A stretch of DNA of 45,011 nucleotides from Escherichia phage JLBYU37: sequence record NC_073054.1; one strand, given 5' to 3'. Within the stretch, counting starts at the first letter, position 1. Each line of letters starts with the position of its first letter. Both the position numbers and the translations under genes were made by a program. The notes below the pieces were generated by a model. That model was given only the letters and a program-made list of their open reading frames with translations, had not been told where the DNA came from and did no database searches. This document shows, in pieces, positions 34,295 to 39,352 of this stretch.

Positions 34295-34402
34295 ATGCGC
34301 CGACCATCGGCAACATAGGAGACGGCCCTGCCATCTAAGGGGATTATAACAGGCACAAAAAAGCCCACCAAATCGGCAGGCTGGGAGGCTTATGGGTTGC
34401 CG

Positions 34403-35545: not shown

Positions 35546-35606
35546 ATTAATTTACTTCCAGATTGAGATGACCTGGATGCAATATACCACGGTACTGGGG
35601 CAATAA

Positions 35607-35633: not shown

Positions 35634-35640
35634 TGATTGT

Positions 35641-35808
35641 TTACGTCACTGGGTCAGATTCTTCCTGTGGCGGCGGGCTTGGCAGCTTCGCATCGAAGAC
35701 CCCAGCGTGGCTGATAGTGTCGGCGATGATAGCGCGTGCGCCTGGGTCTTCGGTTTTAGCCAGTGCGGCAAGCGCGTCCGCATTATGATCAAGAATACTT
35801 TTTAACAT
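35641..35808 (-). CDS. small hypothetical protein (55 aa) downstream of endolysin
   Basis: ATG 35808 with GAGGTG RBS 7 nt upstream; translation MLKSILDHNADALAALAKTEDPGARAIIADT...; below track threshold. Confidence 0.4.
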   Translation of the reverse strand: MLKSILDHNADALAALAKTEDPGARAIIADTISHAGVFDAKLPSPPPQEESDPVT

Positions 35809-36548: not shown

Positions 36549-36835
36549 TTTGCGCCCCCCGGAAGTCGGAACGACTCAATAGTCTCCCTGATCCGGGCGG
36601 CTATTGGCATCCAGAAGATTGCAGTTACGAAGCCCAAACCGGCGACAGTGCGCTCGCCAGATAAGCCCGCCCACTCGGCGATAGCTGGCGCACCAAATAT
36701 GGCGCACAGGAAGCCAACTACGACATATAAAACGAAGTTCAACGGCCCTTTCGTTGCCTCGCCATGAATGCGTGCGCCTACGAAGCCACCAGCAAGACAC
36801 GCAAGGGCGAATAACCACTCGTTTAGCTTATCCAT
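36545..36835 (-). CDS. holin-like membrane protein
   Basis: 96 aa, three hydrophobic helices, charged C-terminus; first gene of the lysis cassette. Confidence 0.55.
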   Translation of the reverse strand: MDKLNEWLFALACLAGGFVGARIHGEATKGPLNFVLYVVVGFLCAIFGAPAIAEWAGLSGERTVAGLGFVTAIFWMPIAARIRETIESFRLPGGAK

Positions 36836-36870
36836 AAAAAAGTCCCAGTAAGTTTTATCTCACTGGGACT
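36836..36870 (-). other. stable hairpin plus U-tract abutting the holin start codon
   Basis: Minus strand: AGTCCCAGT-12 nt loop-ACTGGGACT followed by UUUUU and then AUG 36835; no Shine-Dalgarno. Confidence 0.45.
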
Positions 36871-36887
36871 ATATCACGCTTGCATAA

Positions 36888-37187
36888 TTAATCGAAAATG
36901 GACCACTTGCCGACGCCTTTCCACTCCCATCCACTCGACCGGACGGCCTCGAACATCCGGCCCCCTATCATATCCCGATACCACAGCCACCACATGCGCA
37001 ACCTGGTCGGGTGCTCCGTGATTCCACGGCGCTTGTATACCTCGAACGTCATCCGGGTAATGCTGGCAGCTTCCACCGCAGGCCATACCAGGAATACCCA
37101 TATTGCGCCCAGCACTCCCGTAACCAGGCATAACATGCTGACCATACCAAACCAATAAATCACATCATGAATCATAATCTGCCCCAT
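36888..37187 (-). CDS. membrane protein (95-99 aa)
   Basis: N-terminal TM helices (VIYWFGMVSMLCLVTGVLGAIWVFLVW); alternative start ATG 37175 coupled to the upstream small ORF. Confidence 0.45.
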   Translation of the reverse strand: MGQIMIHDVIYWFGMVSMLCLVTGVLGAIWVFLVWPAVEAASITRMTFEVYKRRGITEHPTRLRMWWLWYRDMIGGRMFEAVRSSGWEWKGVGKWSIFD

Positions 37188-37273
37188 AGGTATTTAACCA
37201 GACTAATAACCGACGCCAACAGCACCAGGGCCGCCAGACTACCGCCACATACTACCGCGAAGACGTATAGCAT
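37172..37273 (-). CDS. small single-pass membrane peptide (33 aa)
   Basis: GGAAGGGG RBS 8 nt upstream of ATG 37273; MLYVFAVVCGGSLAALVLLASVISLVKYLWGRL; stop overlaps the next ATG. Confidence 0.4.
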   Translation of the reverse strand: MLYVFAVVCGGSLAALVLLASVISLVKYLWGRL

Positions 37274-37378
37274 CGAATTGCCCCTTCCGGTTTGCCAATA
37301 TGGCGCGCCCATGCACGCGCCACGAAGTAATTGCGAAATACCCGACCGCCTATCTCGAAGCGGTTATGCATCAGCATA

Positions 37379-37549
37379 TCACGAATCACAGCCGACACGG
37401 GATACGACCTCCAGATGTGGGTTATGGCGAGGTGCCCAGTGCACTTGCTTAGTCGCCGTATTACGCAGTTTAACCTGGTAATGGGTCACGGCGACAACCA
37501 GGTACAAATCGCGGGTTAATCTATCCCGCACTAAATCGAATTTATTCAT
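37379..37549 (-). CDS. small basic hypothetical protein (56 aa)
   Basis: ATG overlaps the stop of gene 37546-38100 (ATGA); low-complexity basic sequence; weak support. Confidence 0.3.
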   Translation of the reverse strand: MNKFDLVRDRLTRDLYLVVAVTHYQVKLRNTATKQVHWAPRHNPHLEVVSRVGCDS

Positions 37550-38100
37550 CTCAGAACGACCCCGCGCGGATCGGTAGACTTCATGCTGCCGTCAGGGTAG
37601 ACCAGAAGCACACCAATGCCAAAGCGCTTTGCGTCCAGATTAGCCATGCGCATTGCATCGCATTGCTGGGTAATGGCCTTCCGGGCGTTGTCGATATGCT
37701 CGCGCACCTTGCTCTCGTCGTATTTGGTATATGGGTGCTCCGTACGGGTGATCGCTTTCGCCACGACGCCAGGGCGCTTAGGTGTGTAGTTCCGGCCTAC
37801 GCGGGTGTAATTCACCAGGGTGGCGGGGTTAATAGTCGCGCCTGCCACCAGAGTGCTGTCGATAGTAATCCATTCCGTCCCGACTGACTTCACGACCCAG
37901 GTGTAGTCATTGCCATCACAACGCAGCACATCACCTACTCGTACGTCGTGGTGCACTACCTGCAAATGCTCATGCAGGGTGGCTTTCTTGTACCAGAATA
38001 CGCGGTCGCTGGCTTCATGGTACATGCGCACATAGTTCGGCAGCACTTCGATCGGCTTCAGGATATAGCCATCGCACTTACGGCGGAATAGTAATTTCAT
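37546..38100 (-). CDS. hypothetical protein (184 aa)
   Basis: Well-formed ORF coupled to flanking small ORFs; no motif recognised. Confidence 0.55.
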   Translation of the reverse strand: MKLLFRRKCDGYILKPIEVLPNYVRMYHEASDRVFWYKKATLHEHLQVVHHDVRVGDVLRCDGNDYTWVVKSVGTEWITIDSTLVAGATINPATLVNYTRVGRNYTPKRPGVVAKAITRTEHPYTKYDESKVREHIDNARKAITQQCDAMRMANLDAKRFGIGVLLVYPDGSMKSTDPRGVVLR

Positions 38101-38231
38101 TGTTCTGTCTCCTCGATCTCGTCAATTGCTTTTGTGTCGCCATCGCATACCGTAGCGATGCCGTTTTGTTCGTAGTCAAGTACGCACATATGCAGGTCGA
38201 TAAACGCCTGCGATATTCCGTCTAAGAACAT
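38097..38231 (-). CDS. small acidic hypothetical protein (44 aa)
   Basis: GGGAGA RBS 7 nt upstream of ATG 38231; stop coupled by ATGA to gene 37546-38100; overlaps the end of ORF 38222-38497. Confidence 0.3.
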   Translation of the reverse strand: MFLDGISQAFIDLHMCVLDYEQNGIATVCDGDTKAIDEIEETEQ

Positions 38232-38497
38232 TTGCTCAGTCTCCCGTGTTTGCCCACCCGCTCAATGGCGGGCTTCTGGCGTAATGTAATACGTATTCCC
38301 ATTGGTTGCAAGGAAGTCCGCACCCTGAAATCGTGTTGTGCTGCGAACTGGTGTAAGTAGCGAGTCTGCGTCAACGGCTTTACGTCGTCGCGATAGCACC
38401 AGAATACCGATTCGCCCTCAACTGCATTCTCAGCCCATATTCGTATGCAATGCAGGGGAATATGCCACGAAAGCTGTTTTGCTCGCCTACGGCCCAT
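38222..38497 (-). CDS. hypothetical protein (91 aa)
   Basis: AAGGGG RBS directly after the stop of gene 38507-38812. Confidence 0.4.
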   Translation of the reverse strand: MGRRRAKQLSWHIPLHCIRIWAENAVEGESVFWCYRDDVKPLTQTRYLHQFAAQHDFRVRTSLQPMGIRITLRQKPAIERVGKHGRLSKCS

Positions 38498-38506
38498 TTT
38501 GGCCCC

Positions 38507-38812
38507 TTATTTCGCAAGCTGGGTGAATAGCTCACGCTGGGCTTTAATCCGGGCGACGTTTGTCACTGCCTTATCGCCAATACCGAAGCGATATGCCAGG
38601 CGCTCGCGGGAGAATGCACGCGCGTATTCGTGGATTGCCTTCGCCAGCGTCTTCAGTTCGTCAAGGCTGGCATCCATGCCGTCGAGCGCATACATGATTG
38701 CCTGCTGGGCCAGTATTACTACATGCGCCGCGCGGTCTGCGTTGCCGTTCAGAGCCTTCGCTTCGTCCAGCTTCGCCAGGGCCATTGCGTAATTCCAGAT
38801 TAATGCTCTCAT
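38507..38812 (-). CDS. hypothetical helical protein (101 aa), first gene of the minus-strand operon
   Basis: GAGGA RBS; preceded by the motif-bearing promoter at 38824-38880. Confidence 0.5.
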   Translation of the reverse strand: MRALIWNYAMALAKLDEAKALNGNADRAAHVVILAQQAIMYALDGMDASLDELKTLAKAIHEYARAFSRERLAYRFGIGDKAVTNVARIKAQRELFTQLAK

Positions 38813-38823
38813 CGTTCAGTCCT

Positions 38824-38880
38824 CATGTTGGTGTGCAACCAATATAGCAAGGTGCCAGGGCGAATGCAACCAATATTAAT
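38824..38880 (-). promoter_or_regulatory. sigma70-like promoter with two motif copies (minus strand)
   Basis: On minus strand TTGCAT (plus 38864-38869) N17 TATATT (plus 38841-38846) followed by GGTTGCACACCAAC, same cassette as at 28470-28489; TGCAACCAA at 38834-38842 and 38865-38873. Confidence 0.55.
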
Positions 38881-39024
38881 CACGCGCATGAAAAAGTTGA
38901 TCGCTATCTGCTGTGACTGCAAACTGCGTTTTTCACTCCGCATAATGCAACCCGCATTGGTTGCCTAGTTCATCGACGACCGCTCTTCGCATCATGCTGC
39001 CGTGTATTTTGCAATCTCCAGATT

Positions 39025-39211
39025 TTATTCAGTCTCAGACGAGGGGGGCCACTGACCCCCGTCTAGTCTGAAAGACTGGGGTGCTGTCCCGCTGTCCCGC
39101 TCCTCTGGAAGCCGCGTCATCCGGGGCGGGACGGGGGTGCTGTCCCGCTTTGTCCCGCCCCTTGTTTGTCCCGCTTTTTGTCCCGCTTACTTTATGCAAT
39201 AAAACTGCATA
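39025..39211. repeat. non-coding iteron-rich element, copy 2 (beside the primase-helicase gene)
   Basis: ~90% identical to 22570-22756; GTCCCGC half-sites at 10-16 bp spacing; inverted GCGGGAC...GTCCCGC pair; followed by A/T-rich stretch 39190-39235. Confidence 0.75.
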
Positions 39212-39271
39212 ACTATTCATTATATCTACACTACACGGCAACCAATGCGATATAGATTTAATGCTCAATCT

Positions 39272-39352
39272 GGCAACCAATACGCGCACAAATTAATCGT
39301 TTAGCGATATGGGAATTCCCATATCGGCAACCAATACGCGCAAATTTTAATC
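39272..39352 (+). repeat. two ~28 bp direct repeats GGCAACCAATACGCGCA(C)AAATT(T)TAATC
   Basis: Copies at 39272-39299 and 39326-39352, 54 bp apart; second copy overlaps the primase-helicase stop codon. Confidence 0.6.

Follow-up and report, generated by a model that had tools for sequence, protein, structure and literature searches.

In Escherichia phage JLBYU37 (sequence record NC_073054.1; the whole 45,011-nucleotide (nt) stretch analyzed is called the window here), the region between the primase/helicase gene and the lysis cassette holds a chain of small genes on the minus strand, at 38812–36888 (Table 1). An initial annotation, made from the letters alone, had named seven small open reading frames (ORFs) in this region, and all seven are present on that strand in the places assigned to them. 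It had counted "at least seven," and the chain in fact consists of eight genes: one of 48 amino acids (aa) with a GTG start had been overlooked. Several members fall, as had been noted, below the 60-aa cut-off of the ORF track, and it is only through this length cut-off that they were missed; GenBank already holds an annotated "hypothetical protein" counterpart for each of the eight. The junctions are, in order, a 9-nt gap, a 10-nt overlap, two ATGA overlaps, overlaps of 20 and 22 nt, and a final ATGA. Overlaps of the ATGA type, which the initial annotation had reported together with TAATG, are thus found at three junctions, and TAATG is found at none. A Shine–Dalgarno sequence (SD) precedes every start, with SD duplex energies of −4.7 to −10 kcal/mol, in agreement with the good sites described before. 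Same-strand genes with overlapping or nearly abutting stop and start codons, each start behind an SD, have the structure of a coupled operon, and the chain genes are probably translationally coupled.

The substitution patterns among relatives support coding throughout the chain. The ratio of non-synonymous to synonymous changes (pN/pS) was obtained from alignments to 3–17 relatives, for the named frame and for the two shifted frames. In the named frame it is 0.49 for the 101-aa gene, 0.25 for the 91-aa gene, 0.33 for the 44-aa gene, 0.62 for the 184-aa gene (where it is partly saturated), 0.20 for the 56-aa gene (from three comparisons only), 0.19 for the 48-aa gene, and 0.29 for the last gene in its 95- or 99-aa form. 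In the shifted frames of these seven genes, the values are about 0.95–3.9. The 33-aa gene, which is discussed below, falls in the same range as the others, and because the pattern is specific to the named frame (0.19–0.62 across all eight), coding is supported for every chain member.

We searched with a 2.1-kb query, 36800–38900, using megablast, and blastn for the wider spread. It matched 156 phage records, nearly all of them Escherichia or Shigella phages of Dhillonvirus, the HK578-like siphophages, and the best match is vB_EcoD_Opt212 at 94% identity. On these matches the phage is itself a Dhillonvirus, an HK578-like siphophage of Escherichia coli. Query coverage among the relatives ranges from 55 to 90%, which marks the chain region as mosaic and variable within a genome that is conserved elsewhere. 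The PHROG families named below and the counterparts in Opt212, JLBYU60, Bas83, McMelon, and HK578 are full-length homologs (E 1e-26 to 1e-93). The counterparts lie in the same order and orientation as here, and differ by allelic variation only; their annotations disagree over start codons and often leave out the 33-, 44-, and 48-aa genes. Six of the eight proteins match PHROG families (9839, 12533, 15977, 10243, 13628, and 2531), all of unknown function. Searches with the chain proteins gave no match in Pfam, NCBIfam, or PADLOC, nor, by single sequence or by profile, in the PDB sequences. In PADLOC-DB, which covers defense systems and not anti-defense proteins, there were 0 matches for nine proteins at E up to 1, and an Rfam search of the window returned nothing. 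The host labels of two records, OQ221563.1 and MG065648.1 ("Acinetobacter phage NJ01" and "Campylobacter phage A144"), look doubtful. NJ01 matches ∼68% of the 2.1-kb query at 83% identity, has the chain genes, and looks like a Dhillonvirus; A144 shares 96 nt only, at the end of its record.

Table 1. Genes of the chain, its predicted signals, and the flanking features (coordinates in the window)
Feature	Position	Strand	Remarks
Gene 1, 101 aa	38507–38812	minus	
Gene 2, 91 aa	38222–38497	minus	
Gene 3, 44 aa	38097–38231	minus	
Gene 4, 184 aa	37546–38100	minus	
Gene 5, 56 aa	37379–37549	minus	
Gene 6, 48 aa	37252–37398	minus	GTG start
Gene 7, 33 aa	37172–37273	minus	
Gene 8, 95 aa	36888–37175	minus	99 aa if ATG 37187 is used
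Chain promoter (predicted)	38841–38880	minus	−35 TTGCAT 38869–38864, 17-nt spacer, extended −10 TGcTATATT 38849–38841
Intrinsic terminator	36870–36841, with T run to 36836	minus	12-bp stem, 6-nt loop, T6 reaching the holin ATG (36835)
Extended −10-like element TGATATAGT	36876–36868	minus	Overlaps the first 3 nt of the terminator stem
Primase/helicase	41611–39347	minus	
Intergenic gap, 530 nt	Between primase/helicase and chain		
Two holin genes	36835–36303	minus	phrog_2359 and phrog_2508, both annotated "holin"
Endolysin	36316–35825	minus	Followed by phosphoesterase, then terminase and structural genes

The products of the first six genes differ widely in character. The 101-aa protein is a soluble four-helix bundle whose N terminus and last 45 residues are conserved and whose middle is variable; considered as a helix-turn-helix regulator, it gave no such fold or profile match. 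The 91-aa protein is basic (17 K+R versus 7 D+E), matches phrog_12533 at 2.5e-56, and occurs in 155 phage records at 72–96% identity; the SD of its gene, AAGGGG, shares bases with the gene 1 stop codon. The product of gene 3 (44 aa) is very acidic (11 D+E versus 1 K+R), matches phrog_15977 at 9e-26, and occurs in 105 phage records. Both are confined to the genus, as is the 48-aa protein. The 184-aa protein has two SH3/Tudor-like β-barrels (residues about 3–51 and 57–103), followed by a disordered linker, a long helix (129–160), and a β-hairpin. Its gene is hypervariable, mosaic, and restricted to the genus, and its only matches in BFVD are Dhillonvirus proteins. The 56-aa gene is a rare accessory insert that separates gene 4 from gene 6; no more than 10 phage records, representing about 7 phages, contain it (95% identity), and its product has no PHROG or Pfam match. 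Where this insert is present, gene 6 starts with GTG; in relatives without it, gene 6 starts with an ATG that overlaps the stop of gene 4. The 48-aa gene is the best conserved member of the chain. It is found in 150 phage records at 89–98% identity, has the lowest pN/pS of the eight (against 3.9 and 1.5 in its shifted frames) and the strongest SD (GGAGG, −10 kcal/mol), and encodes a basic protein that matches phrog_13628 at 7e-37.

Gene 7 owes its presence to an insertion or deletion. Its 33-aa product, MLYVFAVVCGGSLAALVLLASVISLVKYLWGRL, is one hydrophobic helix with a KD19 maximum of 2.45, and the SD GGAAGGGG sits 7 nt ahead of the ATG; hydropathy thus agrees with the single transmembrane (TM) helix behind a ribosome-binding site that had been described. 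Most Dhillonviruses have no gene between the 48-aa gene, there 46 aa long, and the 95-aa gene, whose product starts MLHD(L/V)IYWFG and whose start lies behind GGAAGGGG or GAGGGGG. The window and a subset of relatives (the insert is in 56 of the 156 records, about a third of those of Dhillonvirus) have 98 extra nt just past the first codons of the 95-aa gene. This insert shifts the frame, so that the old SD and ATG now open the 33-codon ORF, the TGA of which overlaps a new ATG at 37175; GGGG precedes this ATG, and the sequence MIHDVIYWFG is restored. The right end of the insert repeats the SD–start segment (GGGGCA..ATG..CAYGATGTG), the pattern expected of an indel between short direct repeats. 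A second insert lineage, comprising Bas83, Bas85, SP1, and CHD5UKE2, has 79% DNA identity to the main one, and the ORF is annotated in Bas83 as Bas83_0064. Two other accounts of this segment were considered and rejected. The first derives the 33-aa gene from a tandem copy of the stretch that encodes the TM segment at the 5′ end of its 95-aa neighbor. The DNA score is 16 versus 15.3 ± 2.4 by chance; protein similarity is inconsistent between alleles, the repeat is limited to the roughly 25-nt SD–start segment, and comparison of the 33- and 95-aa proteins showed no significant similarity. A start at the upstream ATG 37312, which would give a 46-aa peptide and in some annotations gives a 108-aa membrane protein, has no SD, is absent from six relatives, and would overlap the well-supported 48-aa gene.

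For the last gene, ATG 37175 is the most likely start, giving 95 aa, because GGGG lies 6 nt upstream, the ATG overlaps the stop of the 33-aa gene, and MIHDVIYWFG is colinear with the MLHDLIYWFG of relatives. The 99-aa (37187) and 108-aa readings found in some records have no better support. The final ORF of ∼97 aa in the initial annotation is thus real, with its start corrected to give 95 aa or, from 37187, 99 aa. The product is a membrane protein, as proposed, with one N-terminal TM segment (residues about 4–39 by hydropathy). The domain that follows is rich in Trp and Arg and conserved across its family (WPxVEAxSxTR ... WWxxYRDxxGGR ... WxGVG), the homolog of Erwinia phage Bue1 included. The protein matches phrog_2531 at 6e-36 and belongs to a wider family that tblastn traced through 477 phage records, more than 300 of them Salmonella phage (Jerseyvirus among them), with Klebsiella phages and Bue1; a word-indexed homolog search found close relatives only, so that the wider family comes from tblastn alone. 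A 93-aa ORF in another frame (36874–37155, minus strand) lies wholly inside the 95-aa gene and is open, with variable length, in many relatives. As an embedded o-spanin it was rejected: it has no signal peptide or canonical lipobox, its stops vary, and its pN/pS is about 1. It is most likely an artifact of GC content rather than a gene.

Natural variants lack substantial parts of the chain. In Pubbukkers, the missing segment begins in the middle of the peptide gene and takes in the whole 95-aa gene; the terminator and lysis genes are kept. In PNS1, a deletion runs from codon 69 of the 184-aa gene, of whose product the first 69 residues are left, to the middle of the peptide gene, and the 48-aa gene is gone. 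The 184-aa gene of JL1 is reduced to an 89-aa version, the metagenomic P0076 and P0266 carry in-frame fusions of the 184-aa N terminus to the 95-aa C terminus, and P0270 likewise carries a deletion in the 184-aa protein. Several chain genes are thus dispensable. Several of the deletions are independent, some lie at short microhomologies (e.g. ..GDVLRD|MIGG..), and the sequences fused or lost are, between them, the C-terminal half of the 184-aa protein, genes 6 and 7 (48 and 33 aa), and the TM part of gene 8. The interval appears to be deletion-prone in natural populations.

The chain is bounded on both sides by predicted transcription signals. Upstream, where the initial annotation had placed a motif promoter, a promoter-like site is present at 38869–38841, with a predicted transcription start near A 38834. 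It is built of two copies of the motif ATATTGGTTGCA, at 38876–38865 and 38845–38834, of which the first supplies TTGCAT and the second the extended −10. Both copies are conserved in most relatives, and the spacer between them varies in sequence and not in length, which is the pattern expected of a sigma-70 promoter. At the other end, an intrinsic terminator, absent from the initial annotation, starts 18 nt past the stop of the last gene. It is top-ranked in the terminator scan and folds with −24.1 kcal/mol (z −5.3). The stem is invariant in 28 related loci, with variation in the loop only, and in one divergent locus (L003) an additional C in the 5′ arm is compensated by an additional G in the 3′ arm. 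The element TGATATAGT that overlaps the terminator is conserved in all 28 loci, L003 included, and is most likely a promoter for the lysis cassette, a candidate role argued, as for the other extended −10 elements, from placement and conservation. Inside the chain, there are two weak extended −10 matches (37381 and 37149) with a score of only 4/6. With a predicted promoter and a terminator of its own, the chain looks like a transcription unit of its own. Its description as upstream of the lysis cassette thus holds for position only; the terminator separates the two, and the functional tie that the phrase suggested is not supported.

Several further observations concern these signals. The motif ATATTGGTTGCA (core ATTGGTTGCA) has 16 hits in the window with up to 2 mismatches, versus 3.15 expected. 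The hits span 3835–42153 and are mostly same-strand pairs ahead of operons: 6771/6788 (+), 8686 (−)/8696 (+), 28458/28471 (+), 38865/38834 (−), and 39326/39272 (−). Sites 28471 (+) and 38834 (−) share, beyond the motif, an identical 5′-untranslated region and SD (ATATTGGTTGCACACCAAC.A.GAGGAC), and TTGGT..ACCAA forms a small dyad. The motif could be a phage-specific promoter or operator signature or a regulator-binding site. In the 530-nt gap, iteron-like repeats GCGGGACA (39083–39190, minus strand, about 7 copies, TRF periods 8 and 12) could be an origin of replication or an array of protein-binding sites. Ahead of the promoter, two ORFs of 44 aa (38809–38943) and 84 aa (39035–39289) show no coding signal (pN/pS 0.56 and 1.10, respectively), and the second is annotated across the iteron repeats in some GenBank records (e.g. 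OPT212_17). Farther along the minus strand, a terminator at 35634–35613 is followed by the extended −10 TGGTATATT at 35589, ahead of the phosphoesterase operon, and another at 34382–34362 by the extended −10 TGTTATAAT at 34351, ahead of the terminase operon. In these two pairs the distance from terminator to extended −10 is within 25–30 nt. The terminase-proximal pair differs in sequence in L003, and the arrangement is kept.

We think it probable that the chain is a Dhillonvirus accessory-gene operon, set between primase/helicase and the lysis cassette, that serves non-essential interaction with the host and not the control of lysis or late transcription. In such an operon, the host-type promoter at 38869–38841 would drive one ∼2-kb polycistronic mRNA for all eight genes, and the SDs and close junctions (a 9-nt gap or overlaps of 4–22 nt) would let ribosomes pass from one gene to the next. 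Transcription would stop at the terminator, which would shield the holin gene, and the lysis genes would use their own extended −10 promoter overlapping that terminator. Promoter use, expression as a single mRNA, coupling, timing, and biological role are what we infer here; the ORFs and their coding signal, SDs, and overlaps, the indels and deletions, the conserved terminator, and the folds are the observations that this reading joins. The products most likely act on the host, in takeover, counter-defense, or exclusion. A host-interaction class would be in keeping with the mosaic gene content, with the hypervariability of the 184-aa gene, and with the presence of small proteins that are charged or lie in the membrane, and the indels of the 33- and 56-aa genes together with the natural deletions point to non-essential host interaction rather than to lysis or late-transcription control. 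Exclusion peptides, which had been among the functions first suggested, are possible.

Several points weigh against this reading. Proteomics of the Dhillonvirus EE09 reported four phage proteins in infected cells (CDS29, 40, 56, and 61), none of them from the range of coding sequences (CDS) expected for this region (PMC10673088); it is the only Dhillonvirus proteomics paper that our literature search found, and the same search found no Dhillonvirus transcriptome or promoter study. The chain promoter and the candidate lysis promoter are consensus matches only, and a generic promoter scan called neither; across the window, extended −10 matches number 17, versus 11.2 ± 3.2 in shuffled sequences, which is modestly above chance. 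Some read-through past the terminator into the holin gene is possible. The deletion variants are known from database sequences alone. Finally, the 48- and 91-aa genes are near-universal in the genus and well conserved, which fits a more important role than "accessory" implies.

Other explanations have been weighed for individual members of the chain. It could be that the 33-aa ORF does not function and is a by-product of the 98-nt insertion or deletion, which would then affect only translation of the 95-aa gene downstream. Its restriction to about a third of the genus and the repeat of the SD–start segment at the right end of the insert would agree with this, as would its disruption in McMelon by a 13-nt duplication and the loss of its stop in CEC_Kaz_2018; moreover, the few substitutions within the main lineage are non-synonymous as often as synonymous. 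We nevertheless consider this unlikely. In two lineages that are 21% apart in DNA, the length is exactly 33 codons, start and ATGA junction are both retained, and the helix is hydrophobic throughout; the replacements between the lineages are conservative (V/I, F/L, S/G, and R/K), and an alternative 27-aa frame is closed in the second lineage. The pN/pS of the ORF, which compares these two diverged lineages only, is 0.41 over the full length and 0.22 outside the overlaps with its neighbors, against 0.54 and 10 in the shifted frames. There is thus fair evidence that the 33-aa ORF is a real gene, thin because it comes from only two lineages. A different proposal takes the 33- and 95-aa membrane proteins together as parts of the lysis system, expressed by read-through into the lysis cassette, in which they would time lysis in antiholin-like fashion or by modulating the holins, or would stand in for spanins; a lysis-timing role had also been among the initial suggestions. 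The two holin genes follow directly downstream, both products have one TM helix, and the position of the holin SD inside the terminator hairpin makes joint regulation of the two units conceivable. Past the endolysin no spanin-like gene is evident, and the ORF there lacks a TM segment. This ORF, which encodes a 55-aa acidic protein (35641–35808, minus strand), is the only one between endolysin and the next terminator; beside the lysis cassette no pair of spanin-like genes can be recognized, and the endolysin–phosphoesterase interval varies between relatives. Against a lysis role, however, a strong and conserved terminator stands between the two genes and the holin, and homologs of the 95-aa protein elsewhere are not adjacent to holins: in Jerseyvirus BPS11Q3 the gene lies six genes after endolysin, beside a NinH-family gene and before terminase; in Klebsiella phage MK54 it has terminase on one side and portal on the other; and the Bue1 gene adjoins dexA. 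Pubbukkers has no 95-aa gene and yet retains the terminator and lysis genes, and about two thirds of the genus have no 33-aa gene. Neither the 33-aa nor the 95-aa protein matches a holin family in Pfam, PHROGs, or NCBIfam, and as a spanin the 95-aa protein would have only about 60 residues after its TM helix, with no embedded o-spanin in its gene. We regard a part in lysis as improbable for these proteins.

The 184-aa protein had been suggested as a late-gene activator or antiterminator, and in this form the idea would have it bind host RNA polymerase and carry transcription, in the manner of λ Q, past the terminators that precede the lysis, packaging, and structural genes. The layout does resemble λ pR′–tR′ ahead of the S, R, and Rz lysis genes, in that an intrinsic terminator stands right before the holin gene and is followed on one strand by lysis, terminase, portal, head, and tail genes. 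In λ, however, a 194-nt leader separates promoter from terminator, versus about 1.9 kb of coding sequence here; no Q-like protein was found here, and a conserved extended −10 overlaps the terminator, which makes a separate promoter a simpler account than an arrangement of the λ type. The lysis and packaging operons each have their own conserved extended −10 element, and if these are real promoters the late genes need no antiterminator. The 184-aa protein matched no known antiterminator or activator family in Pfam, NCBIfam, or the PDB sequences. Its gene is shortened or deleted in PNS1, JL1, P0076, P0266, and P0270, and because these deletions occur in viable phages the deleted genes cannot be an essential late activator or antiterminator. 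A Q-like function for the 184-aa protein therefore seems to us very improbable. More broadly, it is unlikely that any chain gene encodes an essential activator or antiterminator of late genes or a factor at the core of lysis timing; a modulating, non-essential role is possible.

Returning to an accessory operon that ends at the terminator, the segment 36876–36836 suggests a further, tentative idea, which we consider rather unlikely: that it combines terminator, promoter, and translational gate for the holin gene. The only SD-like element of the first holin gene, GGGA (weak, −3.9 kcal/mol), lies in the 3′ arm of the terminator (36852–36836), and the terminator T run doubles as spacer to the holin ATG. 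In RNA coming from the accessory operon, the hairpin would fold and end transcription; on read-through, the holin SD would remain buried in the 3′ arm. Transcripts from TGATATAGT would start about 7 nt downstream, inside the 5′ arm, and hence would form no hairpin, so that neither termination nor masking of the SD would occur. If this is true, a lethal gene would be insulated from upstream early or middle transcription without an antiterminator. In addition, the 98-nt indel with its 33-aa peptide would take the SD and start away from the 95-aa membrane-protein gene and thereby retune its translation.

Among known systems, the nin region of λ (ninA–ninI) is among the closest in kind. It consists of small, overlapping, dispensable genes between the replication genes O and P and the Q and lysis genes. 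The two loci are alike in having small genes with abutting or overlapping stops and starts between replication and late or lysis modules, in content that varies between related phages, and in the individual dispensability of their members; the Jerseyvirus homolog of the 95-aa protein adjoins a NinH-family gene. They differ in that none of the eight chain proteins matches a Nin family in Pfam or NCBIfam, and in that the chain has a predicted promoter and a terminator of its own and belongs to a virulent phage, whereas the nin region is read through by N-modified polymerase. By analogy, the best reading of the chain is as a positional counterpart of the nin region. The membrane proteins of the chain recall small phage envelope proteins such as the superinfection-exclusion protein Imm of T4 and the antiholins, which are likewise short, have a single TM helix, and are non-essential and variable between relatives. 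The resemblance is in kind only, as no sequence or profile similarity was detected.

The chain is thus an ordinary locus of an already known type, its ORFs have annotated counterparts, and current understanding is unchanged by it. New here are an eighth gene, a corrected start for the last one, and the non-coding nature of the upstream "ORFs," together with the origin of the 33-aa gene in an indel, the deletions in natural variants, and the hypothesis that links terminator, extended −10, and masked SD. For annotation these points have some value: the records of Dhillonvirus disagree with one another, the 48-, 44-, and 33-aa genes are often absent from them, the 95-aa gene is given three starts (95, 99, and 108 aa), and ORFs in the non-coding iteron and promoter region are annotated as genes despite having no coding signal. 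Dhillonviruses are widely used in work on E. coli (the BASEL and SECphi collections), and the operon offers a compact catalog of genus-specific proteins of unknown function, among which the hypervariable 184-aa protein and the near-invariant 48-aa micro-protein are candidates for host-takeover or counter-defense screens. The arrangement of terminator, extended −10, and holin SD provides a testable hypothesis on how the holin gene may be kept silent during early transcription in a virulent siphophage.

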